Notes under the pieces: model-generated | Seen by the model: the letters and a program-made list of their open reading frames with translations, nothing else | Told to the model about the DNA's origin: nothing | The model's database searches: none | Shown: positions 30,946 through 59,726 of the stretch, piece by piece | Layout: the number at the start of each line of letters is the position of its first letter | How positions within the stretch are numbered: position 1 is the stretch's first letter | Made by a program: the position numbers and the translations under genes | From: Polyangiaceae bacterium | GTDB taxonomy: Bacteria; Myxococcota_A; Polyangia; Polyangiales; Polyangiaceae | Reading direction: 5' to 3' | NCBI GenBank assembly: GCA_050287085.1 | Contig: JBNKBE010000024.1 | Location: 30,283 to 94,282 of the forward strand | Length of the DNA: 64,000 nt

Positions 30946-31880
30946 GGCTTCTGACCTCCTTTGCGGGCTCGGTGGGTTCCGCCGTGCGGCGGGCTTGCCG
31001 AGTCACAGGAGGTCAAAGCCTGGGTGGGGTTCGGTCGGGGACACGCGGTTTGGGGACACTCGAAATCGACCCGCAGCTCCGCGAGCACCTCACGCAGCCG
31101 AGCGATGGCCCGCGAGTGGCGCCGCTTGATGCGCTGGTAGGTTCGACGCCGCTCCGGTGGGGACAGGTCCGGGTGAACGCGATCGACGTACGACGTCAGC
31201 AGCTCGCCGCGCACCAGAGTGGCGACCACCAGCTCGAGCTTGTCGCCGTCCAAGATGTGACCGGCGCGCTCCACCAAGAACGACACCAGCGCGGCGTTCT
31301 CCTTCGGATCGCGGCGGCGCGGCTTGTTCGGCTTGGTCTCGGGCCAGCTCGCCAGGTGCCCCAGGGTTTCGAGATCGTCTTGCCTGCGCGAGATGTCGTC
31401 GGGGTCGTCGAAGCGCACCTGCTCGAGGTCGCGTTGCTCGGCCCGCACCCGCTTGAAGACCTCGCGCTGGGTCATTTGGCGCAGGTACATGCAGGTGCGA
31501 TCGCGCCGCTGACTCAGTGGGAAGTCGCGGACGACCTCGAAGAACGACGAGAGCACGATCTGGTCGAGGTCGTCGCCCGGGACGGCGTCACCGAAGATGC
31601 GACCACGCAGACGCGCCAGCATCGGGTAGAAGGCGACGACGAGCACCGCATTCCAGAACGGATGCGGCCGTCGCTTGTGCTCGCGGAGCAGCGCCCGGGT
31701 GAGCGCCTCCTTCTCCGCGTAGCGCAGCGCCGATTCGTCGCCGAGGACGGCGAGCACGCTGAGCACGGTCTCGTGCTCGCGCAGCTCCAGTTGGTGTTTC
31801 TTGGCTTCTTCAAAACGCTTCTGGTTTCTCTCTGCACGCACCTCGGCTCTGAGGGCGCACTTCATCTGATGAAGGCCCAT
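30942..31880 (-). CDS. Phage-encoded sigma70/ECF-like factor
   Basis: Region-2-like DDLDQIVLSSFFEVVRDF..YLRQMTQREVFK and region-4-like C-term IKRRHSRAIARLREVL; SD GGAGG. Confidence 0.65.
   Translation of the reverse strand: MGLHQMKCALRAEVRAERNQKRFEEAKKHQLELREHETVLSVLAVLGDESALRYAEKEALTRALLREHKRRPHPFWNAVLVVAFYPMLARLRGRIFGDAVPGDDLDQIVLSSFFEVVRDFPLSQRRDRTCMYLRQMTQREVFKRVRAEQRDLEQVRFDDPDDISRRQDDLETLGHLASWPETKPNKPRRRDPKENAALVSFLVERAGHILDGDKLELVVATLVRGELLTSYVDRVHPDLSPPERRRTYQRIKRRHSRAIARLREVLAELRVDFECPQTACPRPNPTQALTSCDSASPPHGGTHRARKGGQKP
31012..31042 (-). promoter_or_regulatory. Phage motif copy GTCCCC-N17-GCTTTGAC upstream of the replication operon
   Basis: Matches six + strand copies; its 3' part pairs with the SD/start region of gene 30703-30945. 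Confidence 0.7.
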
Positions 31881-32036
31881 GGGCTCCTCCGCTCGCGGCG
31901 GTGGCCATCGGCGCGTCCCGGCTGGGGCGCGGTGCCGATGGGCCTCGAGGAGCCTCTGGCGTTGCCGCTCAGTTACTGGTTGTTGGTCAATGGGCCGCCG
32001 CCACGACCACCGCGACGACGGCGGACGTCATCGCGG

Positions 32037-32252
32037 CTACGCACACCTCCGTTCGTGACGGGGGTGGGCATTGCGGGTGTCCAGACGGTTCGCGGCGCCG
32101 CACTTGCGGCAGTCGGTCGCGAGCTCGCCGCGCACGCGGTAGACCGCCGTCTTGTAGCGGACCTCGACCTCGTCGCCGGTGGCGACGCCGAGGAGCGTGC
32201 CGCACTTGCGGCAGCGCCACTGAGAGTTCTGGTGCCCAATTCCTGACTGCAT
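32037..32252 (-). CDS. Mu Com-like Zn-ribbon protein
   Basis: WRCRKCGTLLG..EVEVR..DCRKCGAAN; SD GGAGG. Confidence 0.65.
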   Translation of the reverse strand: MQSGIGHQNSQWRCRKCGTLLGVATGDEVEVRYKTAVYRVRGELATDCRKCGAANRLDTRNAHPRHERRCA

Positions 32253-32401
32253 CTTGTCCTCCGGTTGTTCGGGCTCCGGGGACTTCCCGGACGCCTCGAA
32301 CCGGAGGCGCGACACAGCGATTCGCCGCCGCGACATTTGGCGTCGCGGCAGAATTTCTTCAGAAAATCAGCGGTGTGGGCGATCGGAGACGACGGGCGAG
32401 G

Positions 32402-34465
32402 CTAGGTCTCCCAGGCCACCGCGGTGTCTCGGTACTGGAGGAAGAAGCCCTTCTTCACCTGCGCGTGGAGGTACTTACCGCAGGGTTTGTGGGCCTTCTC
32501 GATCTCCTTGATGGCGCGGTTGATGGCCTTGGTCACGGCGTCCCGAGCCCGCTTCTGGTCTGGATTCTCGCGGCGCTTCTTGCCCCCGGCGCCGGTCTCG
32601 GCAGAGAGATACTGCGCGAGCTGTGCGATCTGGTCGTCGAACTTGGCGACGGCGTCCATGTCGCAGAACTCCTCGGCCTCGTCGCGCTGTTCCTTCAGCT
32701 TCTCGTAGGCCTCGCGGACGTTCTTGATCGTCTCGTCGTCCGCCCCAAGTGCAGTGGCCATCGGTCTGGATGCCGCCGTGTTGCCCTCTTCGATGTCGAT
32801 GAGCGCGAAGGCGTCGAGGGTCTCTCCGGGGCGCTGCAAGAGCGTGTGTAGATAGGTGAGTCCCTTCTGTGGGCTCAGCGAGAACGGCTTGCCCCCGCGG
32901 AAGCGCACCGTCCAGTTCTGCCCGAATTTGCGGAAGACGTACTCGCTCTCCACCTGAAGTGCTGGGTCAGCGTCGAACGACGGATCCGTTCCGGGTGCCT
33001 GCTGGCCCCGCGCGAACAGGATTGCCGGCAAGGAGTCCGGCGACAGCGAGCCCGGCGTGCGGATGCACTTCGCCATCTTCGCCAGCGTCTCGGAGATCAC
33101 TCGCCCGACGTCTGTGCCGTGGCGCTTGTGCATCTCGAAGATGTTCTTCGACACGGTGTCGCCGTCGTTCCCGGACAACTCCATCATGGCTGGGATGGCC
33201 CGGGCAGCCTCGCCGAAGCTGCCGAGGAACTGGTCGGCGTTGGCAAAGCTGGTGAACTGGTCGGCAGCATCGATGTAGTCGAGCACCAGCGCCCGATCGC
33301 CGTCCTTCTTCCACTCGCCCTTGATGAGGTCGACCTCGTAGCCTTCTTCGGGGTCCTCGTTGTCGAGCCCTCGAGCCAGGACGGAGAAGCGGCGGTCGAT
33401 GCACTGCGAGCATACGCCGCAGTGAGGGTGCATCGTGCTGCTTCGGTGGACGTGGGCACAGCTCACGGTGTGGCGCAGCATCCCTGCGGCGCCGGCGTCG
33501 TTGATGACGTCCAGCACCTCGGCGCGCGTCTTGAGCTCGAACGGGTTCTCGACCGCCATCGGCTTGCCCCGAGCCAACCCGAGAATCTTGGCGAAGCCGA
33601 GCAACACCCGGGGGTGGGTGGTCCGAGTCGCACGCGCACCAACGATCTGAGGAGAGATGGGCAGATTGAAGCTCGTCGTGCCGTTCTCGTAGAACCGGAT
33701 CTTGTCGTGGCCGATGATGTGGGCGACGGTGCCGGCCATCGCGGCGTAGAGGAACGAACGCGAGCGCTGCGTTCGCTCCTTCCGTAGGGCCTTGTCGTGC
33801 TTGTGGACCTGGATGCCGACGTGCGGGATGCCGTTGCGCGACGACCAGGTCTGCAGATCACTGACCAGCTCGCGCTGGGTCTTCCAGGTCTTCGACGCGC
33901 TCCGGTGGCTGACGAGTACCGGGCTCTGCTTGTCGATGGCGAGCGCCTGCACCGCGCCGCCGAACGAGTCCATTCCGCCCGAGAAGAGCTGAACGACGTC
34001 GATGTCTTTCCAACCCCCGACCAACGGCTCGCCATTGGGCCCAGTGAACTTGAGCTGCTCGGGTTCTCGGTTCGCCAGCGCCTCGAACTCGAAGGTGTAG
34101 CTGTCGTCGGAGAGGAAGCCGAGCGTCGACTGGAGGGCCTCGACCATCTCCTGCGAGTTCCATAGGTCGGGCTCCTCGACGGCGACCACGAAGTGCAGGT
34201 CGCGGCGCCAGTTGTCGCCCAGGTCGATGCGATCAGCATCACCTCGCGGGAACGCCTGGTCGGCCGCGATGACGTACGAGGCCACCCGCACGAGGTCCTT
34301 CATCACCGGTGGGATGTTCGCGATCAGATTGCTGGCCAGCCCCTCGATGTCGACGGTGAGGTTGGCGTCCGGCCCCGACACCGCGAGGCGCAACGCATCC
34401 TCAGGCGCAGAGGCGTGATTCGCCCCGCCACAGAGGATCCAGCGCTCGCCCGCGGAGGAGCTCAT
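32402..34465 (-). CDS. QueC-family PP-loop protein (QatC-like) fused to C-terminal winged-HTH-like domain
   Basis: LFSGGMDS PP-loop, ERTQRSRSFLY, TRTTHP, NPFELKT, SCAH..HCGVCSQCIDRR Zn site; C-term KGLTYLHTLLQRPG..RARDAVTKAINRAI. Confidence 0.8.
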   Translation of the reverse strand: MSSSAGERWILCGGANHASAPEDALRLAVSGPDANLTVDIEGLASNLIANIPPVMKDLVRVASYVIAADQAFPRGDADRIDLGDNWRRDLHFVVAVEEPDLWNSQEMVEALQSTLGFLSDDSYTFEFEALANREPEQLKFTGPNGEPLVGGWKDIDVVQLFSGGMDSFGGAVQALAIDKQSPVLVSHRSASKTWKTQRELVSDLQTWSSRNGIPHVGIQVHKHDKALRKERTQRSRSFLYAAMAGTVAHIIGHDKIRFYENGTTSFNLPISPQIVGARATRTTHPRVLLGFAKILGLARGKPMAVENPFELKTRAEVLDVINDAGAAGMLRHTVSCAHVHRSSTMHPHCGVCSQCIDRRFSVLARGLDNEDPEEGYEVDLIKGEWKKDGDRALVLDYIDAADQFTSFANADQFLGSFGEAARAIPAMMELSGNDGDTVSKNIFEMHKRHGTDVGRVISETLAKMAKCIRTPGSLSPDSLPAILFARGQQAPGTDPSFDADPALQVESEYVFRKFGQNWTVRFRGGKPFSLSPQKGLTYLHTLLQRPGETLDAFALIDIEEGNTAASRPMATALGADDETIKNVREAYEKLKEQRDEAEEFCDMDAVAKFDDQIAQLAQYLSAETGAGGKKRRENPDQKRARDAVTKAINRAIKEIEKAHKPCGKYLHAQVKKGFFLQYRDTAVAWET

Positions 34466-35232
34466 GCATCCCCCCTCCGCAGCTCAAGCCGCATTTTCTT
34501 GAGCGCGTAGCCGACGAAGCGCGCGGTTCGGTCCTCGGTGAGGTCCTTCTCGAAGCGCGCCTTCGAGTACCAGGTGCCAGCGAACTTCTCGACGATCTTC
34601 GAGGCCTGCTTGCAGTGAAGGTCGAGGGCTTCGTTGAATCGGCGCTGCTCGGCGGCGCTGCCAAATCGTTTGTCGGGGCCGACGTGCTGCGGGAGCTCGC
34701 GACTGACGTAGTAGGTCAAGAAGCGCTGCGCGAAGCGGGCGAAGAAGTCGCGAGCGACCGTGCCGAACTGCTTCTCAGTGGCGAGCTTGGAGACCTCACG
34801 GCGGACGTCATCTGGGGTCGAGCCGAAGAGGCTCTGGGTGCGACCGCTGACGAGCGATGCGAGCGTCTCGACCGCGGCCGACTGCGCCATGTCGCCGAGG
34901 TCGGTGCGTCGCCTCGTGCTGTTGATGTGGCGGTCGATGGCGTCGGAAAGCGCCGCAGACAGCTCGGCCGTCGATGGCGAGGCCGATACGTCGATTCCCA
35001 GGCCCCGAAGAGCCGACGCGAAGTCTTCACTACGTGCGGCATCAGGGAGCTGGGTCAGCAGATAGAACGAGCGCAGGACACCGGGGTCGGATGCAGCGCG
35101 GGCGAGGTCACCTTCGGCTGCATCGAGGGTCGCGGAGGCCACCGCCGCGGAGCTCGCGCTGCCACCGATGAGCTCAACGACCTCGTTCCACCGCTTTGTG
35201 CGCGGGAGCCTGCCGAGGCGGATGTGTCCCAT
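34462..35232 (-). CDS. Helical partner protein with N-terminal Gly (MGHIRLG..), QatB-like by context
   Basis: Coupled on both sides (TGATG with repressor, ATGA with QueC-like gene); all-alpha pattern; assignment by analogy only. Confidence 0.6.
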   Translation of the reverse strand: MGHIRLGRLPRTKRWNEVVELIGGSASSAAVASATLDAAEGDLARAASDPGVLRSFYLLTQLPDAARSEDFASALRGLGIDVSASPSTAELSAALSDAIDRHINSTRRRTDLGDMAQSAAVETLASLVSGRTQSLFGSTPDDVRREVSKLATEKQFGTVARDFFARFAQRFLTYYVSRELPQHVGPDKRFGSAAEQRRFNEALDLHCKQASKIVEKFAGTWYSKARFEKDLTEDRTARFVGYALKKMRLELRRGDA

Positions 35233-35804
35233 CAGCGAGCCTCCTTGCCGCGGAGATTCCGCCGAACCTCGATCACCTTGCCGATCACCTCGGGCCCGCC
35301 GGGTCCGGTGGCGCGCACGAGGTTGGCGGCGCTCTTGGATGCTGCGGCCAGGACGATGTCCCCCGCGACGACCGCCACGCCACGAGCGACGATCACAACG
35401 TCACCCACAGCGATGTCCGGCGACGGTGCCTTGAGCTGTTCCGTGACCCGCACCGCGAAGAGCTCCTCGTCGCCGTCATCGACCGTGATCCAGCCGTCGA
35501 CGTCCTTGGTGAGCGCCGCCCGCTTGCGCAGCGGCGGCTTGGCGACGATGGGCACCTTGCGGATCCCGGGCCCAGTCTCCTCGTCCGGCAGGCGGCCGGT
35601 TGGCTTCCAGCTACGGCCCGTCCCCTCCTCGTGGTCGACGAAGCCCTTCTTCTTCAGCGCCACCAGATGCTGGTAGGCCGTGGACCGGCCCACCGCGATG
35701 GCCTCAGCCACGTCGGCGACGCTCGGCGCCATGCCGCGCTCGCGCCAGAACCGCTCGACCACCTCGAGCACGGTTCTCTGCTTGTCGGTCAGCCCCCGTG
35801 CCAT
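35232..35804 (-). CDS. LexA-like repressor with degenerate S24 domain
   Basis: LTDKQRTVL..PSVADVA..STAYQHLVALKKKGFV LexA wHTH; C-term FAVRV..GDVVIV..VIGKV but no Ala-Gly site or GDSM. Confidence 0.8.
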   Translation of the reverse strand: MARGLTDKQRTVLEVVERFWRERGMAPSVADVAEAIAVGRSTAYQHLVALKKKGFVDHEEGTGRSWKPTGRLPDEETGPGIRKVPIVAKPPLRKRAALTKDVDGWITVDDGDEELFAVRVTEQLKAPSPDIAVGDVVIVARGVAVVAGDIVLAAASKSAANLVRATGPGGPEVIGKVIEVRRNLRGKEAR

Positions 35805-35814
35805 CCCTGGAAAC

Positions 35815-35849
35815 TACCGAACAAATGTCCGTGCATCAAATGTTCGGTA
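35815..35849. promoter_or_regulatory. Candidate repressor operator(s)
   Basis: Perfect IR TACCGAACA-N17-TGTTCGGTA containing two tandem Cheo-like boxes, CGAAC-AAAT-GTCCG and GCATC-AAAT-GTTCG, about 10 nt upstream of the lexA-like ATG. Confidence 0.65.
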
Positions 35850-35856
35850 TTTGGAT

Positions 35857-36142
35857 GTGGACGGGACCGTGGCCGCCCGTGGACAGGTTGGCGGCCGCGG
35901 GCTTCCGTCACGATTCCGGGTGGTTGAGCCCAGTGGACGGTGTGGACGGCTTTGTGCGACCAGGGAGCAGCTTGCAGAGAGCCGTTGATTTGCTCGCCGG
36001 AGCACGCCTGTGTGGGCACCCGTTCTCTTCGTAGAAGTGAGAGAAGAATCTTGTCCATCCTGTCCACACAGACTCAACCGGCTGAATCGGCTCCGGTTTT
36101 TCCGGGACAGGGTGCGCGTCCACAGGCGTCCACCGTGTCCAC
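35857..36142. repeat. Degenerate ~90-bp inverted repeat built of GTGGAC iterons; candidate replication origin
   Basis: Left arm GTGGAC x4 + CGATTC + GGTTGAG mirrored by CTCAACC, GAATCG and GTCCAC x4 in the right arm. Confidence 0.6.
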
Positions 36143-36166
36143 GGCGCCCTCGGCGCCGATGCCGTC

Positions 36167-36196
36167 GTCCCCTCTCGTCGTCGCCGTCGCTTTGCC
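36167..36196 (+). promoter_or_regulatory. Phage motif GTCCCC-N16-GCTTTGCC
   Basis: Exact 16-nt spacing, about 30 nt before ATG 36226. Confidence 0.75.
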
Positions 36197-36225
36197 CCTC
36201 CGGACACATGCACCGGAGGTTCTCC

Positions 36226-36396
36226 ATGAAAAGCGCTCTGCCGATTGAGGCCCGTCGCCCGGCCCGTGAGGAGGTGGTCGACATCCTGGCCGCCACCCTG
36301 ATCCAAATGCTCGCCCGCGGTCTCGAACCCAACCGCGGCGACGAACCCGACAAGGAGGAACCGGCGGCTGAGGCCGAGGCCGACCCATGTCACTGA
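36226..36396 (+). CDS. Small hypothetical protein (56 aa)
   Basis: SD GGAGG; overlaps the next gene. Confidence 0.6.
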   Translation: MKSALPIEARRPAREEVVDILAATLIQMLARGLEPNRGDEPDKEEPAAEAEADPCH

Positions 36397-36968
36397 AGGC
36401 TCGGCTCGCCGTCGTGGAGCAGCCCGCCGCGCCCGCGACGTTCAGCTGTCCCGACTACGACCCGCCGCCCGGGTCGAAGCGGTGTCGCAGCTATCTCGGC
36501 AACGGCAGCTGCGCTCGCGACGACCACTTCATGTGCGAGGAGTGGATGAAGGCGAACGGCCACGCCGTGCCCGCTCCGCTCGAGGCGAAGCCCGAGCCCG
36601 CGCGCGACCTCTTCGGCAACCCGCTCCCCGAGGAGCCGCCGCCGAAGAAGCCCGAGAAGGTGACGCCACCACCGGCGCCCAAGCCCGCTCCGATCGCGGT
36701 GCCATCAACGACCGACCGTGACGCCGTCCTCGTGCGCAACCTGACCGACGAGGACATCGCGTCGTTCAAGGCGCTCGGGGTCGAGGTCTGTCTCGCGTCC
36801 GAAGAGATCGGCGAGGTGTGGATCGTGCCCGAGTACACCGAGCAGGAGCGACGAGAGCTGCGCATCGATCACGCCGCGACCCTCACGGCCGTCTGCGCTG
36901 CGTTCCCGGGCGCCAAGGTCACCTCGTTCGAGAAGCTCGCGAAGGCCGAGGGCCCGAAGCCGACCTGA
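36387..36968 (+). CDS. Hypothetical protein with Cys-rich N-term and Pro-rich linker
   Basis: Open frame with phage-like codon usage. Confidence 0.65.
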   Translation: MSLKARLAVVEQPAAPATFSCPDYDPPPGSKRCRSYLGNGSCARDDHFMCEEWMKANGHAVPAPLEAKPEPARDLFGNPLPEEPPPKKPEKVTPPPAPKPAPIAVPSTTDRDAVLVRNLTDEDIASFKALGVEVCLASEEIGEVWIVPEYTEQERRELRIDHAATLTAVCAAFPGAKVTSFEKLAKAEGPKPT

Positions 36969-36971
36969 GCT

Positions 36972-37001
36972 GTCCCCGGCGGTCTTCGTCGGCGCTTTGC
37001 C
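36972..37001 (+). promoter_or_regulatory. Phage motif GTCCCC-N16-GCTTTGCC
   Basis: Intergenic, exact spacing, 30 nt before ATG 37032. Confidence 0.75.
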
Positions 37002-37031
37002 CTGGTGGCGACCACCACCGGAGGCAAGCGA

Positions 37032-38192
37032 ATGACCCGTCTGAGCTTCAGCAAGCTGTCCAGGTACGAGACGTGCCCGCTCTCGTACAAGCTGCACTAC
37101 CTCGACCGGCTCAAGTCCGAGCCCGGCGTTCCGCTCTTGTTCGGCTCGGCCGTGCACGCGGTGCTCGAAGGCCTCGTGCTCGAGCACGTGCGAGAAGAAC
37201 GCGTCGGCGCGCTGTCGGAGGACCGCGCCGCCGAGCTTTGGCAGGAGGCGTGGGCAAAGTCCGGCATGTCCGGCCTCGACGTGTTCCGCGAGGGGCTCGA
37301 GCTGGTGCACCGCTTCGTTCGCGAGCAGGGCATCCTCGATCACCACGACGTGCTCGCCGTCGAGAAGGAGTTCCGGCTCACCATCGGCGGCTTCCAGGTC
37401 ATCGGCTACCTCGATCGCGTCGATCGGGTCGACGACGAGACCGTGGAAGTCATCGACTACAAGACCAATCGCCAGCTGTTCACCCGCGAGGAGACCGACG
37501 CCAGCCTGCAGATGTCGCTCTATCACCTGGCCGCGCAGGAGCTGTGGCCGTGGGCGAAGAAAGTGCGGCTGACGTTTTGGATGTTGCGCCATGGGCTGCG
37601 GCAGACCACCGAGCGCAGCGCCGAAGACATCGAGGGCACGCGCCGCTACGTGGACACCCTCGGCACCACAATCGCCAAGGCCCGCGAGTTCCCCGCTCGC
37701 CTGAACTCGAACTGCATCTACTGCGATCACCGGCAGCACTGTCCGGCCTACGCCGACGCGCTGCAGGGCAAGCGCGAGTTCATCTGCGAGGACACGAGCG
37801 ACCTCGAAGCGGTCGCCAAGGAGCGTGAGGAGGTCGCGCGTCTCGCCAAGGTGCTCTACGCCCGCAAGGGCGAGCTGGAGGGTGTGCTCAAGACCGCACT
37901 CAAGGAGCACGACGAGCTGGTGCTGGGCGGCGTCCGCTACACCATGTTCAAGACCAGCAAGAGCGACTACCCGCTCGGCCGCACGCTCGCGGTGCTCGGT
38001 GAGGCCACCGGGCTCGACCGGGAAGCGCTGCTCGAACGCATCGTCTCGGTCGACAACAAGGCCCTCGAAGGCCTGCTCAAAGAGCTGGGCAAGTCGATGG
38101 AGCGCCCGCGGGTGAACCTGCTGAAGGCCGAGCTCGACGCCATCGCCGAGAAGACCCACTCGCCGCGCTTCTGGGCCAAGGAGGTGGCGTGA
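37032..38192 (+). CDS. RecB-family PD-(D/E)XK exonuclease (Fe-S, Cas4-like)
   Basis: LSFSKL..CP, GSAVH, VEKEF, GYLDRVD, VIDYKT, QMSLY, CIYC..HCP. Confidence 0.85.
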
Positions 38193-39247
38193 TGCGCCCG
38201 CTGGTGTTCGTCGACTGCGAGACCACCGGACTCGACCCGTCTCGCCACGAGTTGATCGAGGTAGCGGTCCTCCGCGTTCACCCGCAGACGCTGGTCGTCG
38301 AGACCGAGCTCGCGCTCAAGGTCCGCCCCGAGCGCATCGAGGACGCGGACCCTGAGGCGCTGCGCATCAACGGCTACAGCGAAGAAGCCTGGACCGATGC
38401 TGTGTCCCTCGACGAGGCGATGGCCCAGCTGGCTCCGGTGCTCGAAGGGGCGATGCTCGCCGGCCACAACGTTGCCTTCGACCGCGGCTTCCTGGACGCC
38501 GCCTGGACGCGGGTCGGTCACCGCCCGGAGAACCTCGACCACCACCTGCTCGACACGGCGACCCTGGCGTGGCCGCTGCTGTCGTCGGGAACGCTCGACT
38601 CGGTGTCGCTGACGCCGGTGTGCAAGCACCTCGGCATCGAGCGCGGCGAGGAGCACTGGGCCCTCGACGATGCCCGGGCCAGCCTGGAGGTCGCACGACG
38701 TCTGCTTCCCGTCATGGAGGACTACGCCCAGCTCTCGGCGTTCGCCGGAGACGAGCGCGCCATCTTCCGCACGCTGCTTCGCCGCATCGACGTCGGCCGC
38801 GGTCACTACGGGCCGTGGAAGGCCGACGATGGTCGGCAGTACCTGCGCGAGGCGCTGGCCGAGGTCCTCGATGCGCTCCACTACTGCGCCGCCGAGCTGG
38901 TGCGCCTGGACAAGCGTCGCCAGGTGCCGGGCTTTCGCACACGCCGGGTCTACGTCTGCCACCCCTACCGCAACGCGCCGGCCGAGAACGTCGAGCGGGT
39001 GACCGAGATCTGCAAGGCGCTCTCGGCCAGCGGTCACCTGCCGGTCGCGCCGCAGCTCTACCTGCCGCAGTTCATGGACGAGGCGACCGAGCGTGAGCAG
39101 GCCGTCGCCGTGTGCCTCGAGCTGCTCGACGCCAGCGACGAGGTGCGGGTCTACGGGCGGTCGATCACCGCCGGCATGCGGCTGGAGATCGAGCGAGCCG
39201 AGGCCCGCGGCATCCCCGTGCGTTTCGTGGACGCGGAGACGGTGTGA
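38192..39247 (+). CDS. DEDDh 3'-5' exonuclease fused to MazG-like and NDT/DUF4406-like domains
   Basis: VDCETTG, HNVAFD, DT, HWALDDA; middle [19 protein letters not shown]-term [18 protein letters not shown]. Confidence 0.75.
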
Positions 39248-39258
39248 TGGGAGGCGCC

Positions 39259-39585
39259 ATGTCGCGACGCAAGGGAGCCACCTTCGAGCGCGAGCTGGTC
39301 TGGCGCTTCCGCGAGGTGATGCCCGGCGCCGAAGTGAAGCGCGGGCTCCAATCGCGCTCCGGTGAGGAGGTCGCCGACGTGGACTGCCCGGTGTTCTGGA
39401 TCGAGGCCAAGCGCGGTCGAAAGCCCAACGTCCGCGCTGCCCTCAAGCAAGCCGAGGCGAGCGCGCCCAAGGGCCGCATCCCGGTGGCCGTCATTCGCGA
39501 CGACCGGGCCGCCGCCTTCGTGGCGCTCTCCCTCGAAGACTTCCTCGAGCTCGTCCGCGAGTGGTGGGAGCTGTCACGACGATGA
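39259..39585 (+). CDS. PD-(D/E)XK Holliday-junction resolvase-like nuclease
   Basis: [22 protein letters not shown]. Confidence 0.75.
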
Positions 39586-40424
39586 GCAAGAACGACTCCG
39601 AGAGCACCGGCAACGCCATCGGTCGCCCGAAGAAGGGCGAAGGCCCGCGCATCCCGTACTCGGAGCTCGACCGCATCCTGGTGTTCGGCGAGGTGGTCGA
39701 GTGCGACGACGGCAAGGGCACCACGGTGGTCTACCCGTCGTATCGCGACCTCGGTCGGCGCTATGGCGTCTCGCACAGCCTGATCGCCGACTTCGCCAAG
39801 AAGCACAACTGCATGCGCCGGCGCGAGGTTGCCCAGGCCCGCATCGCCGAGAAGACCGACCAGAAGCTCATCGAGATGCGCGCCCAGTCGCTGGCCATGT
39901 CCAAGGACGACGAGCTGCGCATCATCGACACCTACCTGGCCGGCTTCGAGAAGGCGCTCTCCGACGGGCGCGTGCGCTTCGACAACCCCGCCGACTTCAA
40001 CACCATGGTCCGGCTCAAGGAGTTCGTGCAGGGCGGCGCCGACTCGCGACAGGAGGTCCACGCCGTGCTCTCGCTCGAGGAACTGCAGGTGCGGCATCGC
40101 CGGATGATGAAGTCCATCGAGGCGAACCAAACAGCCGAGCTCGATGAAGTGACCGCTGCCGGTGGAGTGCTCGATGTTGGTGAACAAGAATCGCCCGTAA
40201 ACTCCCCGCCGCCCGCCTTCGACGAAGCCTCCGGGGAAGTGACCGGTCAGTGGGTGGAAGGGACCACGGCCGGCGACGACGGCCCACGTGCCGCGGTCGA
40301 GGGCGAGCCCGACGACGACCCCGAGCTCGGCGAACGCGGCCGACACGCGGCCAACGTCGGCCACACGCGGGGCGACACCGCGGCGAGCTGGGACGACGAG
40401 GACGACGACGAGCCCGAGGAGTGA
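39582..40424 (+). CDS. HTH protein, probable terminase small subunit
   Basis: GRP motif, [19 protein letters not shown], acidic tail; precedes terL. Confidence 0.5.
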
Positions 40425-40859
40425 GCCGTGCCGCGCCGTCCACCACCACCGCGGCCGACTCCGGCAACTGACCGCGTGCAGTTCCTCGCCGAACATCGCC
40501 GCCCCGAACACCGCCGAGACGTGCAGAAAGCGGCGGTTCGCGGCGCACGGGCGTTAGCGTTCTCGGGGAGTTGCGCGTGCCCATCGCCGGCCCCGTCGCC
40601 GAGCTCGACCGCCGCTTTCCTCGATCCGTCACCCGGACCGCGGCCGCCCATCACCACGATGGAGGCATGCGCCTACCCCCGGGGGGCGGGTCCGACTTTC
40701 GCCGCACCAACCCGACAGCCCAAGGGTTCCCGGGGCCGTTTCCGACAGCGGCTGTTCTGGGAAAGTGGACAGGGGTGCGCGTGGAAACTGACCGCTCACT
40801 TCTCGCGGTCAGCTCACGGGTCGCGGTCACTTTCGTTGTGCAAGTGGGTCGCGGATCGC

Positions 40860-41474
40860 TCAGCAAGGCAGGTCGAGGACGGCGCGCACCAGGTCTTCGT
40901 CGCTCGGGTGGGCGTAGATGCTGGTCGTCAGGATCGACTTGTGCCGGGCGAAACGCTGGGTCACCCGGATGTCCTTGGTGCGTCGGTAGAGGTTCGAACA
41001 GGCCGTGTGGCGAAGCGCGTGGAAGTTCAGCCGGCGCTCGAAGCCGGCACGCTCCTGCCAGACGTGGAAGACCTCCCGGAGCTGGCGCGCCGACAGTCGG
41101 TTGCCCCGGCGGCTGACGAACACCGGAGCGTCCCGGTCGAGGCTCTCACCGGCGCTGCGCTTCCACCGGTAGAAGCGATCGAGCTTGGCCCGGACGGCGT
41201 CGGGCAGCACCACCTCCTGGGTCGCCAGGCTGTCGCTGCTGCGCTTGAACACCCGCAGCACCAGCCGTCGCCGTGCCTTGCCCCCGTCGAAGACGTCGCC
41301 GACGTCGAGGGCGAGCAGCTCGTGCTCGCGAAGGCCGGTTCCAAGGGCGAGGCTGAAGATCACGTGGTCCCGGAACCCGGCTTTGTGCTCGCCCGTCGCC
41401 TTCAAGAGGCGCCGCTGCTCCACCTCGGTCAGCGTGCGCGGCGGGGTTCGGATGTTGTCTGCGTAGGTCGCCAT
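40860..41474 (-). CDS. Minimal tyrosine recombinase (catalytic domain only, 204 aa)
   Basis: TGLREHE (R), K, FHALRH, ARHKS, TSIY catalytic set. Confidence 0.88.
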
Positions 41475-43176: not shown

Positions 43177-43206
43177 GTCCCCGCGGAGCCCGTCCCACGC
43201 TTTGCC
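43177..43206 (+). promoter_or_regulatory. Phage motif GTCCCC-N16-GCTTTGCC
   Basis: Intergenic, exact spacing, about 40 nt before ATG 43246. Confidence 0.75.
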
Positions 43207-43245
43207 CCCCTGGGTGTGCCTCGTGTGCCGCCCGGGAGGCATGCG

Positions 43246-43961: not shown

Positions 43962-43991
43962 GTCCCCACGAAACAGCCGATTCGCTTTGTC
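43962..43991 (+). promoter_or_regulatory. Phage motif GTCCCC-N16-GCTTTGTC ahead of the portal operon
   Basis: Intergenic, exact spacing. Confidence 0.72.
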
Positions 43992-44092
43992 TGTTCGGAG
44001 GCGAGGCGTGCGGCTCGCCAAGGTCCTCCGGTGCAGAAGGTCTCCGAAAAGGCGAGTCGCACGCCGAACCTCCGCTTCCGCCGGAGGACACC

Positions 44093-47716: not shown

Positions 47717-47746
47717 GTCCCCAAAACGCAGGTCCCTGGCTTTGCC
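47717..47746 (+). promoter_or_regulatory. Phage motif GTCCCC-N16-GCTTTGCC ahead of the head operon
   Basis: Intergenic, exact spacing. Confidence 0.75.
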
Positions 47747-47763
47747 CCTTCGGAGGTCCAGCC

Positions 47764-48037
47764 TTGGCCAGGGAACGTGCATCGACAGAGCGAGCGGCCG
47801 ACGCCGCGAACGAGCTGAAGGCGATCCGGGAACGGGTCGTCGCCCTCGAGAAGCGTCTGCGCGATGAGGCCTCGCCCGAGGCGGTCGCCGAGCTGCAGAA
47901 GGAGGTCGAGTCGCTGACGCGCGTGCTCACGGAGCTCGCCGAGGCACCTCCAACCGCTTCTCCTGAGCCCTGGCCCCGAGACCTCAACAGCCAAGCCGCC
48001 GATGCGACCTGGGGCGGCGACCCGGAGGGCCTCCGCG

Positions 48038-48045
<8 letters not shown>
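47764..48045 (+). CDS. Small coiled-coil protein ending in WPRDLN motif
   Basis: SD GGAGG + TTG start; heptad pattern. Confidence 0.6.
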
Positions 48046-50460
<2,415 letters not shown>

Positions 50461-50461
<1 letters not shown>

Positions 50462-51312
50462 TGGCTGCTGGCAAAGCCCAGAGCGCGGTCCATCGGCTCC
50501 TCGACATGGTCGTCGAGGAGGTTTCGCTCGTCGACCGCGCTGCCAATCAACACCGCTTTCTCATCGTGAAGAGGAGTGAACCCATGGATCAAGACACCGC
50601 TGCTGCGGCCGACGCCACCGAGACGCCGCGCGACACCGAGCCGGCACCCCCGGACACCGACGAGACCGTCGTCGACCTCAACGATCTGCCGGACGACGAC
50701 GGCGATGACGTCGTCGAGACCAAGGCCCTGGATGGGAGTCCGTCGGCCCTCATCCTCGCGACCCAGGCACTCGAAGCACTGACCGAAGCCGTCGAGGTGC
50801 TCGGCACCGTCTCCGAGGAGGAGGCCCGCGCCCGCGTGGCCGAGCTCGCCCGCGAGCTTCACATGGTCGCGACCCGACTCGGGGGAGCCATGAACGTTGG
50901 CGAGATGCCGGCACCTCCGGCGGCGGACACCGCTCCCGACCTCGGCAGCGTCGTCGCCTCGGTCCGCAGCGTGCTCGAGCGCGTCGGCCAGATGATCACC
51001 CAGCCCGCACCCGGCGCCACGCCCGTCGAAGGGAAGCAGCCGGATGCAGCCAAGGCAAACGATGCGTCGGATGCCGTGGCGGCGAAGCTCGACAGCGTCG
51101 TCACCGAGCTGCGGGCCATCGGCGAGACCGTGAAGGCGCAGCAGCAACGGCTCGCTCGCATGGAGAAGCGCTTCGGTCTGCCCAACAGCGCGCCCATCGG
51201 GGAGCGCCCGACTCGGGCCGAAGACGAAGCCGACGTCGGCTGGCCTCTGGACCTCAACCGCAGCCTCGACCGCGAAAGCGTCGACAAGGCGATCTCGTTC
51301 CACGACGTGTGA
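50461..51312 (+). CDS. Scaffold-like protein with N-terminal protease strand ([10 protein letters not shown])
   Basis: [19 protein letters not shown]; helical/coiled-coil body; C-term WPLDLN; lies between protease and capsid. Confidence 0.7.
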
Positions 51313-51339
51313 GCGCCCGCGATCACCAAGGAGAAGAAC

Positions 51340-52278
<939 letters not shown>

Positions 52279-52295
52279 TGGGGAGGACCTGAGCC

Positions 52296-52676
<381 letters not shown>

Positions 52677-52677
52677 C

Positions 52678-53313
52678 GTGTACGCGAGCGTGGCCGACCT
52701 CCGCGACGAAGGCGTGTCCGTGGCTCAGGCCTCGGATGCACGCCTTCTTGCGCTCATCGACGAGGCAGATCGCGCCATCGACTCGTTCACCGGCTGGTTC
52801 TTCGAGCCTCGCACGCTGGCGCTACGCCTCGACGGTCGCGGCACCCCGAGCATCGAGCCGCCGGTGCCGCCCATCGAGCTCACCCAGCTCTCGGTGGGAG
52901 GCAGTGACGTGTCGTTCGCGCCGGACGACCTCGTGGTCGTTGGTGCGCCGGTTCAGCCGGGATTCGACGGGCCGCGGCTGACTCGCACCCGCGGCCGTGT
53001 GTTTCCAAAGGCTGTCGGCAACGTCGAGGCCGCCGGCACCTGGGGCTACACCGAGGAGGACGTCACGCCACAGGGCCGCACGCCCACCGAGATCCGTCGC
53101 GCCTGCATGCTGCTGGTGCTGCGTTGGCTTTCGCCGCTGGGCACCGACGATGCCGAGGCCCGCAACCGCTGGCGCATCATCGAGGAGCGCACCCGCGATC
53201 AGAGCTACAAGCTCGACCGCGTTTCGGGAGGTGGCAGCACCTTCACCGGCGACCCCGACATCGACCGCATCGTCGCTCGCTATCGGCGACCGCCAGGACT
53301 GGGGGCTGCGTGA
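52678..53313 (+). CDS. Head-tail adaptor (gp6-like)
   Basis: [29 protein letters not shown] pattern. Confidence 0.72.
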
Positions 53314-53849
53314 TGCGTGGTCGGCTCATCTTTCCATTCCTGGCCGAGCTCCACCGTCTCGACACGGCGGGCACCGCCGCCACCGACCCGGACGGCGCGG
53401 GACCGCTCACCTCGGGCTACGACCCCGACTTCAAGGAGCCGGTGGGCGTCGACTCGAACGATGACGGCATCGGCGAGCCCGTGCGCGTGGAGCATCCGGC
53501 CGTTCGCGTGCCCTGTCAGGTCGAGCCCAAGACCTTCGAGGAGCTGCGCATGTTCGCGGCCGGCAACTCGCCGCGCTCGCGCGTCGAGCTGGTGTTTCAC
53601 TTCCGCGACCTCGAGCAGCTCGGTCTCGTCGATGCGCCCACGGGAGAAGCCCTGGTGCGCCCCGGCGATCGCCTCGGTGCCCTGTACGACAAGGCCGGTG
53701 CGCTGGTGCAGGCAGTTCGCACCCCTCCGGGGCTGTACGTCAGCGAGGCGCGACCGATCGGCTTCGGCCTTCATCGCCAGCGCCCCAGCCGAAACTTGCT
53801 GCTGGTCGCCTTCGAAGACCGACAGCTCGCCGCCGGGAGGGCCGCATGA
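53313..53849 (+). CDS. Putative head-closure protein
   Basis: TGATG coupling; synteny. Confidence 0.55.
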
Positions 53850-54439
53850 GCGTCCAGAAGACCGGTGACTGGGCGGTTGCGCGCCGCATCCTGCGGGCGG
53901 GTCCGATCCGCTTCAAGGCCGCGGTCGGCACCGCACTCCGGCAGGAGGCACAGCTCCTTCGCAACGAGATCGTCCAGGGCATCACCAAGCAGGCTCCGGG
54001 GGGCGAGGCACTCGCGCCACCGAGTCCGCTCACGCTCGCCGCTCGCGAGCTCAAGGGTCGCGGCGGCACCAAGGCACTGCTCGTCAAGGGCGACCTGCGC
54101 AACTCGGTCGCCGCCATCGTCAAGGGCGACGAGGCCTTCATCGGCGTGCCGCGCAAGGCACGAGCGCAAGGCGGCAAGGCGCTGGTCGACGTCGCCCAGG
54201 TCCAGGAGTTCGGCAAGGGGCCCATCATCGTGCCGATGACGCCGGCAATGCGCCGGTTCCTGTTCGCGCTGCTGCGCAAGGCCGGCGAGGAGCCCAAGGG
54301 CGGCTCCAGCAAGGGCGTCGTGATCATCAACGTGCCGGCGCGGCCGTTCCTGCGCCCGGCGTTCAAGAAGTTCTCGCAGGGATCGCAGGCGCGATTCCTC
54401 GCGCTGGTTGCTGCGCTGAGCGGCTTGGGAGGTCGGTAA
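53846..54439 (+). CDS. Neck / virion morphogenesis protein (HK97 gp10 / Mu gpG-like)
   Basis: [26 protein letters not shown]. Confidence 0.75.
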
Positions 54440-55353
54440 TGGCTGTTCCGACGATCACCTCCGTGACGCCCAGCGCCGGCCCGGCTGCCGGCGGCGACCT
54501 CGTGCGCGTCACGGGGATCGACTTCTCTGCGGCCGTCGAGGTGTTGTTCGACGGCGTGCTCGCCACGGTCGAGTCGCTGCGGAATGAGGCCGGGGTCGGC
54601 ATCGCCGACGTCCGCACGCCTGCCCATGCCGACGGGAGCGTCGACGTCACCGTCCGCAATTTCGACGCGGGCGGCGTGCCCGTGCCCGGCGAAGAGGCGA
54701 CACTCGCAGCAGCGTATCGGTTCCTCCGGGCCCGCATCGCCGAGGAGTCGAACCTCACCCGCATTGTCCGAGAGCTGCTTCAGCGGCTCAGGAGAGAGGT
54801 GCTGGACGCCACCAGTATCTCGGTGTCGGTCGACTACGACGACACTGTCATCGACGGGGTGAACGTCATCGCGCTCGCGCAGCTTCCCGCGGTGGTCCTC
54901 TCCGGTCCCCGCATCGACGAGAACCGCTTCTTCTCCAGCAACGTGCCCCACGAGGATGCGGTCGCGGGAAGCGCTGGCCCCGAGCTTCTGCGCCGGCGTC
55001 CGCCGTTCACTGTGGACCTCGAGTTCACCATCACCGGTGCGTCGAGCCGGACAGTGGAGCTGCTCAACCTGATGGCCGCCGTGGCGACCTTCCTCAATCG
55101 CACGCGCTGGCTCGAGCTGCTCCGCGACCCGGCCGAGACAGCCAAGGGCACCGTTCGCTGGGAGATGGATCCGCAGGGCGAGTACCGCACGCGCCTCGAC
55201 GGACCCGACGACGTTCGCGCGTTCACCTGCGGCTTCGTCGTTCGCGGCTTCGACATCGACGAGGGGCTGCCGCTCGACCTCGGCAAGGCGGTCGACACGG
55301 CCGAGCTCGAGACCGAGGCCATCGCGCCGGCCCTCCCGGGAGGTGGACCGTGA
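54439..55353 (+). CDS. IPT/TIG Ig-domain protein fused to tail-terminator-like domain
   Basis: PTITSVTPSAGPAAGG..VTG..VLFDG..TPAHADGSVDVTV IPT signature; C-term VDLEFTIT. Confidence 0.7.
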   Translation: MAVPTITSVTPSAGPAAGGDLVRVTGIDFSAAVEVLFDGVLATVESLRNEAGVGIADVRTPAHADGSVDVTVRNFDAGGVPVPGEEATLAAAYRFLRARIAEESNLTRIVRELLQRLRREVLDATSISVSVDYDDTVIDGVNVIALAQLPAVVLSGPRIDENRFFSSNVPHEDAVAGSAGPELLRRRPPFTVDLEFTITGASSRTVELLNLMAAVATFLNRTRWLELLRDPAETAKGTVRWEMDPQGEYRTRLDGPDDVRAFTCGFVVRGFDIDEGLPLDLGKAVDTAELETEAIAPALPGGGP

Positions 55354-55679
55354 CCGTGATTCTCATCAACCGCGCCCGGCGCATGAAGGTCTTCACCCTG
55401 GCGCACGCCACCTACTGCGAAGCGCTGGGGAGCTGCGGCTGCACCGTCGTCGAAAGGCGTTCGGGACGGAGGGTGGCGCAGTCGCTGACGCTCGCCGCCG
55501 GCGCTCGAAGTACGGAGCTTCCCGAGGCCGTGCTCAAGCTCGGTGACGTCATCCGTGCCGTGGCCTCCGGTGAGCTGGGTGTCGAGCGCATGGTGCCCAA
55601 GCCCAAGCCGCGCATCAGCAATACCGAGCGTTCCTCCTTCGAGAGCCGCCGGACCAGACCACGAAAGGGATCGAGGTAG
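55350..55679 (+). CDS. Hypothetical protein
   Basis: GTGA coupling; precedes the sheath. Confidence 0.6.
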
Positions 55680-55682
55680 ACC

Positions 55683-57905
<2,223 letters not shown>

Positions 57906-57919
57906 GGTAGGAGGAAACC

Positions 57920-58381
57920 ATGGCGGTCATCGGCAATCCCCGCAGCTTCCACAAGAAGTTCAAGTTCATCGTCGAGATCGACGACATCGGCCACGCCGGC
58001 TTTCAGAAGTGCAGCGAGCTCTCGGTCGAGGTCGCCAACGTGCAGTACTTCGAGGGCGGCTCGCTCATCCCCAACAAGAGCCCGGGCCGCCTGACCTTCG
58101 CCGACGTCACCCTCGAGCGCGGCGCCACTCAGGATCGGGACCTCTTCGACTGGTTCCAGGACGTGGCGATCACCTCGAGCGGCCTCGGCCTCAACGACGT
58201 CTTCTACAAGCGCAACCTCGACATCGTGCAGCAGGACCGCGACGGCACCACCCTGCGCCGCTGGTCGCTCTCCCGCACCTGGCCCGTGAAGTTCGTCGCT
58301 GGCGACTGGGACAACGAAGCCGACGAGAACGTCATCGAGTCGGTCACGCTGACCTACGACTTCTTCGAGCTGGTGCAGTAG
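57920..58381 (+). CDS. Tail tube protein (T4 gp19 / CIS Afp1-5-like)
   Basis: [50 protein letters not shown]. Confidence 0.9.
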
Positions 58382-58396
58382 GCGGAAATCACTGGG

Positions 58397-58452
58397 GCTT
58401 TACTAAATTCGGCATTTTGCGCCGGCGGTAAAGCTGGCGAATTTAGTGAAGC
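58397..58452. repeat. 56-bp element with 15-bp terminal inverted repeats flanked by ACTGGG direct repeats (MITE-like scar / bidirectional terminator)
   Basis: GCTTTACTAAATTCG..CGAATTTAGTGAAGC; ACTGGG at 58391 and 58453. Confidence 0.55.
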
Positions 58453-58460
58453 ACTGGGCT

Positions 58461-59591
58461 TCAGAGTGGGACTCCAAGGACGCCGTTCGGAAACGCGACG
58501 AGCGCCGCGCCCCCTTCGACTGCGCTTCGGGCCAGACGGGAATCGGCAAGCACCGACGAAATTCGCCGATGAAGCCCGTCCGTTTCTCCTGCCAGGAGCT
58601 CTTTGGCCACGCTCGCCAGCAACCCCACTCGTAAACCCAACACTTCACCAAGAAAGAAGACCCGTTCTCCGTGCACCTCTTCGAAGTCCGCGTCCGGTGG
58701 GATGAGCGGGCGAATGTCCCTGCGCAGGAACGGGGTCACCCATCCGTGACCCAGAAACTGGAGGACCTTGCAGTACGAGGCAAGGACGATGCCGTCGGCA
58801 TCGAGTGGGACCGGAAGCGGATCAGCATCACCCTCAGGATCCTCGACGTGGACCCCTGTATCGGTCGTCGCATTCCTAACGGCATCCGATTCCAACCGAA
58901 TCGTTGTTGCGAATGCAATGCGTCCTTCGACGGAGCGCATGGGGAGCCCCACCGGATTCACGTTCTGGACCTGCTTCTTAGCCTTCGCACGCTCGGCTGC
59001 GGATACCGCTGACGGTGGCCCGATGGCTCCCTTCGACTCGGCGATTACAACCTCACCCGTCCTCGACAGACAGAAGTAGTCCGGACGGAGTTCGCCGTGC
59101 TGGCCGGCCATTGTGAGTGATGCTCGGTGGTACGGGCTGGCTGGGTCAGCGAGTGCTGCACCGATGAACGGTCCCGCGTCGGCGATGTGTACGACGTCGA
59201 AGTCACGCCAGAGCAGCCATGCCGCTAGCCCCATGCCGAGTCGCTCTCCGAACAGACCCTTGACCCGCGAATCCCAGGATGCGGCGTCATCGATCAGCCG
59301 GAGCGAACCAGGGCGTGTGGCGAAGGAGTCCAAGTGCTCGACAAGAAATCCCCACGCGCTGAGGTCGTTGGGCGAGGTAGAGGGTGCCTGAGCGATACCG
59401 GCGCAGAAGAGGAGATCGCGCAGCACAGCGCGGGAGGTCCAGCGCGATGGGTGATTCGGGCAAGCCGATGGGTGCACCCCGAACGACATGGTCGTGACCC
59501 CAGCCGACCAACTCGCGTAGGGCAGCGAAAATGGCGGGTGCAGCCCCAGCCAGGGCAGAAACCAGGGGTGAGTCATTATTCGCACGGGCAC
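58461..59591 (-). CDS. Moron: PD-(D/E)XK nuclease-like protein inserted antisense in the tail operon
   Basis: GERLG..RPDY..VIAESKG; own SD GGAGG; codon usage less G/C-ending than its neighbours. Confidence 0.65.
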   Translation of the reverse strand: MPVRIMTHPWFLPWLGLHPPFSLPYASWSAGVTTMSFGVHPSACPNHPSRWTSRAVLRDLLFCAGIAQAPSTSPNDLSAWGFLVEHLDSFATRPGSLRLIDDAASWDSRVKGLFGERLGMGLAAWLLWRDFDVVHIADAGPFIGAALADPASPYHRASLTMAGQHGELRPDYFCLSRTGEVVIAESKGAIGPPSAVSAAERAKAKKQVQNVNPVGLPMRSVEGRIAFATTIRLESDAVRNATTDTGVHVEDPEGDADPLPVPLDADGIVLASYCKVLQFLGHGWVTPFLRRDIRPLIPPDADFEEVHGERVFFLGEVLGLRVGLLASVAKELLAGETDGLHRRISSVLADSRLARSAVEGGAALVAFPNGVLGVPL

Positions 59592-59661
59592 CGCGACGAT
59601 CCTCCACCCGTTCTTTTCGCATGCGAAGGACTTCTACTCCAGAACCGCGTGTTGCGGTCCT

Positions 59662-59691
59662 GTCCCCACCCCTGATGCCGGGCGCTTTGCC
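59662..59691 (+). promoter_or_regulatory. Phage motif GTCCCC-N16-GCTTTGCC re-starting the tail operon
   Basis: Intergenic, exact spacing, about 35 nt before ATG 59727. Confidence 0.75.
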
Positions 59692-59726
59692 TCCCTGGGA
59701 GACCCATCTCCAGGAGGTGCGCGCCG

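Follow-up and report, generated by a model that had tools for sequence, protein, structure and literature searches.

Promoter-embedded hairpins as probable read-through locks at most block-leading genes of a Polyangiaceae prophage

The window analysed here is a stretch of 64,000 nucleotides (nt) from a Polyangiaceae bacterium (contig JBNKBE010000024.1). It contains a prophage with seven copies of the bipartite motif GTCCCC-N16/17-GCTTTG, all on the coding strand and each before the first gene of a gene block. Our main finding is that most block-leading genes of this prophage probably (with a probability of roughly 0.65) carry a read-through lock embedded in their own promoter. A sigma-like protein of the prophage would start transcription some 8 nt past GCTTTG. 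In transcripts that arrive from upstream, the −10 box and discriminator, being part of the RNA, would pair with the next gene's ribosome-binding site and block its translation, and the block-leading gene would be translated only from RNA begun at its own promoter. The motif has a strand bias, a fixed spacing and a place before block-leading genes and after cargo insertion points, and its complementarity to the ribosome-binding site is site-specific; promoter function, the start, the sigma-like protein as reader and repression in vivo are inferred from these features. Coordinates of all features are collected in Table 1.

Results

A promoter-like motif and a sigma-like protein

A looser form of the motif gave 26 matches in the whole genome, against 16 expected. 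Seven of these lie in the prophage and one in a second, partial copy; as only 18 are left outside the prophage copies, the motif does not represent a large host regulon. The second related prophage is in pieces on contigs C13 and C6 of genome G000, with terminase, sheath, tube, hub and tape-measure genes, and C13 carries a near-identical copy of motif G.

Relatives were represented by 140 loci fetched with the capsid protein, in which related loci were counted separately with no deduplication. In these loci GTCCC and CTTT were spaced by 18, 19 and 20 nt in 47, 77 and 42 cases on the coding strand and in 1, 0 and 0 cases on the opposite strand, and other spacings had 0–10 occurrences each. The motif was found within the last codons of the gene for a sigma-like protein of 312 amino acids in 46 of 78 distinct loci, and about 17 further 3′ ends of this gene have a GGCTTCTG variant, as judged by eye. 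The conserved tail of the protein, CPRxxPxGAL, is the motif in translation. Three other prophages were mapped whole, and in these the motif follows the sigma-like gene and precedes the holin or portal block, the head block and the hub, with two further sites in the tail region. Among relatives, the length of several of these junctions differs by kilobases; the tube–hub junction varies between 8 and 7662 nt, as against about 16 nt for sheath–tube and 195 nt for hub–tape measure. The motif is present in 15 of the 27 tube–hub junctions that contain an insertion and absent from five of the seven that do not. A scan of viral contigs with the exact pattern returned 121 stretches, which is near chance for such a collection, and was discarded.

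Since the motif combines two fixed boxes and an unconstrained spacer of such a length, and a sigma-like gene is adjacent, it is likely to be a promoter read by the prophage's own sigma-like protein. The link between protein and motif is one of co-location.

The AlphaFold model of the sigma-like protein has a predicted local distance difference test (pLDDT) score of 85.7. It gave structural matches to sigma region 2 at residues ~54–155 and to region 4 at ~195–270, with a best Z of 9.1; nearly all top rows were sigma factors, and other helical folds scored middling Z. The Foldseek rows listed were all sigma or RNA polymerase entries, the best at E 0.002 and none reaching E 0.001. At the sequence level, Sigma70_r2 matched weakly in five of 67 homologs, the protein had no Pfam family at threshold and no sequence match to a solved structure, and the ESM Atlas returned unnamed clusters, one with Sigma70_r4 in 11% of its members, which we treat as a lead only. 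In the model, then, the 312-residue product folds like a sigma70-family factor in which region 2 and region 4 are both present. The protein resembles phage sigma70-family factors such as T4 gp55 (see PMC9429907) in having regions 2 and 4 in one chain and a bipartite promoter-like motif. It differs from them in reaching no Pfam family at threshold and in the likely presence of its own promoter inside its 3′ codons. Of 401 genomes sampled from the class, 26 had a homolog of the gene, as did 12 of 401 from the phylum; among 50,697 GenBank phage records there was none. The records of the relatives are titled Polyangia, Myxococcales, other Myxococcota or deltaproteobacteria.

In a divergent clade (L136, L141, L352, L355, L356, L360 and others) GTCCCC..GGCTTCTG stands at the 3′ end of the sigma-like gene, the stop codon of which lies inside the −10 box, with the next ATG 8–9 nt further on. 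With this layout a promoter-born RNA would be leaderless, and a read-through RNA would carry a Shine–Dalgarno (SD) sequence.

The predicted transcription start lies inside the 5′ arm

Pyrimidine–purine steps are typical of transcription starts. Of 69 sites, 49 have such a step at positions 7/8 behind GCTTTG; no other position has it in more than 22. The gene at 54439 has nine homologs whose GTG start codon falls precisely on position 8 and which lack an SD, and the conserved stem behind motif E also begins at position 8. The step and the leaderless genes make a start about 8 nt after GCTTTG likely, which would be inside the 5′ arm of the hairpin. A start at this position removes the −10 box and the discriminator, which make up most of that arm.

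It is quite unlikely that the true start is instead upstream of the arm or early in it, and that the hairpin acts in the normal message by damping translation, by protecting the 5′ end, or as a substrate that RNase III/E cuts to release the site. The arm contains the −10 hexamer, which is impossible in a transcript begun by that promoter. The pyrimidine–purine step and the leaderless starts agree on position 8, and the predicted cost of opening the short leader is flat around it, averaging 5.1–5.8 kcal/mol for offsets of −2 to +2. A shift of the start by −8 does restore most of the occlusion (9.5 against 5.1 kcal/mol), and the same alternative would fit the short leader of site D, which is still structured, and the conserved long 5′ stem behind motif E, which has no SD role.

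Hairpins at the window sites

Whole hairpins were scored by z against 200 dinucleotide shuffles. Opening cost was calculated from the SD to the start codon, with 25 nt before the predicted start kept in the long leader, and was compared with 20 arm swaps and 30 shuffles. The initial annotation had each motif copy overlapping the 5′ arm of a hairpin that hides the SD of the next gene, and all the arm sequences that it quoted for six sites are present in place and strand. Predicted occlusion was beyond that of swaps and shuffles at five of these sites (A, B, C, D and G). The generalization to each copy fails at F and at the seventh copy, E, which had not been listed. Given the start proposed above, the predicted short RNA costs 4–6 kcal/mol to open at five window sites and 12.3 at the holin-like gene. 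With 60 nt of upstream context hairpin C was at control level (9.4 against 9.3–10.7 kcal/mol). The stems of classes D and G are long and perfect, and all seven members of class G exceed both the swap and the shuffle means.

The C-UUCG-G hairpin at 47745, which had been noted as weaker, is not above chance (Table 1), and the minimum free energy fold of site F is a different helix, in which CCCTGG upstream pairs with CCAGGG after the TTG start. In relatives, class F averaged 11.4 kcal/mol against 9.6 for shuffled and 11.2 for swapped arms.

At site E a 77-nt stem follows the motif and the gene starts about 100 nt downstream. Opening of the true SD costs 4.7 kcal/mol in the long and 4.2 in the short RNA, and long minus short exceeds 2 kcal/mol in five of nine cases. 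Covariation among homologous prophages, which the initial annotation had suggested as a check, was seen in this stem (Table 1) and was lacking in class F. The E stem might stabilise the 5′ end, serve in processing or be a small RNA in its own right. A relay in which its 5′ GGAGG captures the anti-SD and frees the true SD was ruled out, the stem forming in both long and short RNA. Intrinsic terminators were also ruled out, as there is no T run behind any hairpin on either strand, and Rfam gave no match at E up to 1 in window positions 24000–64000.

The predicted lock across relatives

Of 233 distinct motif matches, we set aside nine whose spacer was the longest and 13 that fell within a conserved stretch of coding sequence. 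The remaining 211 comprised 118 with a strong SD nearby, 13 leaderless sites and 80 others. Ninety-seven of the 118 fell into six gene classes, and 44 were kept at <85% identity.

In all 44 sites the long leader was costlier to open than the short one, so that truncation at the predicted start cuts the predicted cost throughout; this is partly expected from the additional sequence in the long leader. The mean opening cost was 13.1 kcal/mol for native leaders, 10.2 with shuffled arms and 5.5 for short leaders. Motif genes averaged 12.4 kcal/mol (n=43), and 132 other genes of the same phages, taken with an equal window and at similar GC content, averaged 8.3 (kinship-inflated p 5e-6). Among the 30 sites outside class A, which represent five gene classes, 24 were above arm swaps from other classes, 20 above arms of their own class and 26 above shuffles. 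An all-against-all matrix of arms and sites outside class A gave an own-arm advantage of −2.96 kcal/mol (permutation p 5e-5; within class, p 1e-4). An SD and start could be called in 12 of 13 held-out sites, six of them in new gene classes, and one start is probably miscalled. The long leader was costlier than the short in 12 of 12 of these, and 11 of 12 were above the swap mean.

An alternative is that the promoter is real and that the hairpins are a by-product without a selected function: in GC-rich DNA, a C-rich discriminator would match GGAGG by chance. Swapped arms already cost 10.3–10.4 kcal/mol against 12.1–13.5 for native ones, class A and site F are at control level, and the pairing of the spacer to the −10 box is not site-specific. 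We nevertheless consider a by-product unlikely. Own arms beat other real arms, also within a class and in the held-out sites, the long perfect stems of classes D and G speak against it, and the discriminators of nine leaderless sites have a lower pyrimidine content (0.65 against 0.83, with small n).

Several results weigh against a lock at block-leading genes. Pairing of the C-rich discriminator with GGAGG makes up much of the complementarity and is supplied by any motif copy; the mean arm–site interaction is −8.0 for any arm and −11.0 for the own arm. Eighty of the 211 sites have no strong SD close by and are outside the test. The p-values are inflated by kinship, related phages being non-independent samples. 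Pairing between the SD–start spacer and the −10 box was not site-specific (p 0.17). In the window, site F is not above its controls and the short holin leader at site D is still closed, at 12.3 kcal/mol; in the RNAalifold analysis of class F, none of the five pairs was compensatory. In class A, only two of 14 relatives were above swaps and the own-arm advantage had p 0.09, the clade of the window being the exception. The stop codon of the sigma-like gene overlaps the next start by 1–4 nt in 11 of 14 class A loci. Translation of the sigma-like gene would therefore open the site, which points to translational coupling. Folding of the sense strand was better than that of the antisense strand in 27 of 44 sites (p 0.10); this asymmetry is not significant and does not decide for a role in RNA over one in DNA. 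RGC occurred in the spacer in 18 of 44 sites against 44 of 132, which is not significant, and a narrower pattern that was picked afterwards in 15 of 44 against 18 of 132.

The weak strand asymmetry, together with the fact that the repeats span both −10 and +1, would suit inverted repeats that act in DNA, as a hairpin or cruciform across the start that aids or restricts open-complex formation by the phage sigma. This is improbable. G–U accounts for 51 of 432 predicted cross-start pairs, there are bulges and loops of very different size, the 3′ arm follows the position of the SD (in leaders of 11–61 nt), and leaderless and class A copies work without the repeat.

Reach of the predicted lock and possible sources of read-through

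The predicted lock is found only at block-leading genes, and several of the genes that follow overlap their neighbours. For the capsid, sheath, tube and SSB genes the sites are open, with class means of 4.6–7.3 kcal/mol, and full silence would therefore need polarity or translational coupling. With these open followers, the low score of class A relatives and the closed short leader of the holin-like gene, the earlier proposal that the prophage applies the lock systematically, so that leaky read-through cannot express lytic genes, was overstated.

Co-oriented genes lie upstream of every site except B. Plausible sources of read-through are the repressor–cargo–Com–sigma strand at A and the upstream blocks at C–F. 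At G the source is doubtful, and this is a further point against the lock: the tube–hub cargo, judged by its longest open reading frame, is on the opposite strand in 22 of 27 junctions. Relatives differ widely in junction length at D/E, F and G, yet also between capsid and sheath. Read-through from cargo is no more than a possible general source of leakage.

A Com-type site in the leader of the sigma-like gene

The gene upstream of the sigma-like gene encodes a Com-like zinc ribbon. Seven of 12 members match Pfam Zn_ribbon_Com (PF10122) at E up to 1, the best at 0.0013; other zinc-ribbon families also match, and PF10122 is not the best. The window protein itself has no PF10122 match, and no Com structure was matched. 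The hairpin over the SD of this gene is above shuffles in the window clade and in some relatives, though not in all.

The leader of the sigma-like gene contains a Com-type bipartite site, which in the predicted multibranch fold forms the outer helix (GGCTCCTC) with the SD region (GAGGAGCC). In nine of ten site-bearing loci, in which the helix sequences have changed, the predicted opening cost is matched by no more than 3 of 20 shuffles. In the window the signal is seen only when the leader is folded locally, from the Com-type site on; if 130 nt of context are included, 8 of 15 shuffles reach the native value and the leader does not stand out. When the Com-type site is forced to be unpaired in the model, the predicted opening cost drops in 10 of 10 leaders. 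Ten of 11 distinct sigma leaders that have a zinc-ribbon gene upstream carry a relaxed form of the site, as against 0 of 36 that have no such gene, a comparison in which gene order and ancestry are confounded and for which the pattern was set after the leaders had been inspected; the strict form occurs in two or three. The genome background of the relaxed form is 0.003 per 100 nt. It matches nine times in the window, and the sole intergenic match in a leader is that of the sigma-like gene (31956).

None of these nine matches is at any of the six promoter hairpins, where the initial annotation had offered opening by the Com-like protein as an alternative. We regard it as highly improbable that the motif acts as an RNA element, with the Com-like protein opening the six hairpins, even though the Com-like gene is present and Mu Com is described as opening an SD-covering structure (PMC6483171). 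Fixed boxes with a free spacer of 16–17 nt fit a promoter. The three mapped prophages have the hairpins and no Com-like match, although their 5′ control regions may be missing.

Com thus likely gates the sigma-like gene and not the six hairpins. In an upper tier of the proposed mechanism, the Com-like zinc ribbon would unfold a mom-type structure that covers the SD of the sigma-like gene. Synthesis of the sigma factor would then be the gate, and the promoter-embedded hairpins a second safety. A whole RNA-gated cascade, in which a Com-like zinc ribbon permits translation of a new kind of phage sigma, the promoters double as anti-SD arms and every block leader is locked, is a tentative proposal to which we would give somewhat less than even chances. 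If true, it would combine the Com switch of Mu and the read-through lock of T4 in one circuit, with a compact, portable insulating promoter.

The Com-like and sigma-like genes each have an SD-covering structure and no promoter motif (31881–32307, minus strand), which suggests a com-mom-like switch on a sigma factor. Another structured leader (CCCCGAGA...GGCCTGCC.CTCGGGA) is conserved before the Com-like gene or directly before the sigma-like gene in L326, L325, L324, L312 and L131 and, by eye, in L130, L142 and L313. Rfam gave no match at E up to 0.5 in ten sigma loci. Six loci (L167, L368, L369, L356, L372 and L374) have another gene arrangement, in which a distant zinc-ribbon gene is followed by tandem GAGCGC.TGACGCC repeats and by a second gene that matches the sigma profile weakly and has a hairpin across its ATG, a parallel Com-like cassette.

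Comparison with known systems

In T4 genes e, soc, 49 and I-TevI, the 5′ strand of a helix that covers the SD is encoded by the DNA in which the late promoter lies. Long transcripts from upstream are shut, those begun at the promoter are missing the 5′ portion, and repression is ~100-fold for e (PMC3014915). The prophage is predicted to share this geometry of SD hairpin and promoter with T4, in which a phage sigma, gp55, reads the promoter. The initial annotation had invoked this T4 logic. It agrees, at the level of prediction, with the promoter-like motif, the likely start inside the 5′ arm, the effect of truncation and the site-specific arms. The likely promoter is in the DNA of the 5′ arm at six sites, and the long RNA hides the SD or start beyond chance at five of six window sites and 24–26 of 30 sites outside class A, though not in class A or F. 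T4 is a lytic phage, and it keeps early and late RNA apart at a handful of genes, whereas the phage described here is temperate, is known from sequence alone, and would use the device at the majority of promoters in a single predicted regulon (replication, nuclease, holin, head and tail blocks). Its motif is different, and its sigma looks unrelated, with no match among GenBank phages.

Davis, Simons and Kleckner (1985) reportedly described protection of IS10 from external promoters by folding of translation signals. There too an integrated element shields a gene from fortuitous read-through; the system differs in concerning one transposase gene and host sigma, in being built from the element end and in involving no regulon. 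Protection of IS10 from external promoters is also cited in PMC13181058.

The Com consensus is GAG(N)2CC(N)2-3GAG(N)2CC, beside a structure over the mom start (PMC6483171). The likeness to com-mom is that a small zinc-ribbon gene is located right upstream of its target and a bipartite GAG..CC site overlaps a structure over the start signals of the target. The target here would be a sigma factor and not a DNA-modifying enzyme, most sites have one extra base, the leader is longer and multibranched, and PF10122 is matched by part of the members. In the literature covered, mainly open papers and without the supplements of myxophage preprint 10.64898/2026.09.14.751636, which may list these prophages, there was no description of the sigma, motif or hairpins of this phage family.

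A lock known from a few T4 genes and IS10 would thus operate regulon-wide in a temperate phage family found across Myxococcota, and the many natural sequence variants make it directly testable. For phages with no cultured representative in the GenBank phage set, the analysis proposes a promoter, a transcription start and a likely sigma. It suggests how a cargo-laden prophage keeps its replication, lysis and assembly genes quiet, and adds the sigma-like gene as a second candidate among the targets of Com-type activators. As an insulator part, a promoter of 30 bp that blocks read-through translation would also be useful.

Gene content of the prophage

Table 1. Features of the window (opening costs in kcal/mol for long and short leaders; controls are those that reach the native value)
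Feature	Position	Strand	Details
Motif A, TGTCCCC-N17-GCTTTG; predicted promoter of g80-SSB-helicase-primase block	31014..31043	−	predicted +1 31006
Motif B, GTCCCC-N16-GCTTTG	36167..36194	+	predicted +1 36202
Motif C	36972..36999	+	predicted +1 37007
Motif D	43177..43204	+	predicted +1 43212
Motif E, before 69-aa gene and portal	43962..43989	+	predicted +1 43997
Motif F, before 93-aa gene (TTG 47764) and Dam/XkdF-scaffold-capsid block	47717..47744	+	predicted +1 47752, first G of SD
Motif G, after tube–hub cargo insertion	59662..59689	+	predicted +1 59697
Hairpin A over SD of 80-aa gene (ATG 30945)	30946..31020	−	z −5.1; 22.6 long, 5.3 short; 0/20 swaps, 0/30 shuffles
Hairpin B over SD of 56-aa gene (ATG 36226)	36197..36219	+	whole-fold z only −0.5; 12.5 long, 5.2 short; 0/20 swaps, 0/30 shuffles
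Hairpin C over SD of PD-(D/E)XK nuclease gene (ATG 37032)	36993..37030	+	z −3.8; 16.9 long, 4.2 short; 1/20 swaps, 0/30 shuffles
Hairpin D over SD of holin-like gene (ATG 43246; holin PHROG E 1e-7)	43207..43239	+	z −3.8; 22.4 long, 12.3 short; 1/20 swaps, 1/30 shuffles
Conserved long stem from predicted +1 of motif E, just upstream of 69-aa gene and portal	43997..44073	+	14 consensus pairs, 5 changed on both sides, 20 sequences; z −4.1 for 43986-44070
Hairpin F, weak, over GGAGG	47745..47756	+	z −1.5; 6.8; 20/20 swaps, 29/30 shuffles
Hairpin G over SD of baseplate-hub-like gene (ATG 59727)	59689..59718	+	z −2.3; 18.0 long, 6.4 short; 2/20 swaps, 2/30 shuffles
Divergent sigma70-family-like gene, 312 aa; last codons hold predicted promoter A and overlap next start (ATGA)	30942..31880	−	fold matches
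Sigma leader, predicted multibranch	31881..31960	−	z −3.0
Com-type bipartite site GAG-N3-CC-N2-GAG-N2-CC in sigma leader	31940..31956	−	one base longer than strict consensus
Com-like zinc-ribbon gene, 71 aa, CxxC...CxxC	32037..32252	−	alignment
Hairpin over SD of Com-like gene, without promoter motif	32258..32307	−	z −5.7
QatC match	32402-34465	−	
LexA-like repressor gene, first on leftward strand with QatC-like cargo, Com-like and sigma genes	35232..35804	−	PF01726 E 1e-14

The minus strand of the prophage carries genes for a serine recombinase, DUF2924, primase, helicase and SSB, the 80-aa and 312-aa (amino acid) genes, the zinc-ribbon gene, the QatC-like cargo and the LexA-like repressor. 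On the plus strand are nuclease, exonuclease, terminase, holin-like, portal, head, sheath, tube, hub and tape-measure genes. The nuclease, used as a query in viral contigs, found no relative.

A QatC/QueC-like gene and a 256-aa partner form the cargo between the repressor and Com-like genes (32402–35232, minus strand). Between the repressor gene and motif B (35805–36166) are several GTCCAC/GTGGAC repeats in both orientations, possibly operators or origin repeats. A short tyrosine recombinase gene lies on the opposite strand between the putative small and large terminase genes (40860–41474, minus strand), a placement that is kept in relatives. The XkdF-type head protease is fused to two D12-class adenine methyltransferase domains (48002–50461, plus strand). 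Beyond the serine recombinase lies a set of type I restriction-modification genes in which an inserted DarT/DarG pair separates S from R (13765–22346, minus strand).

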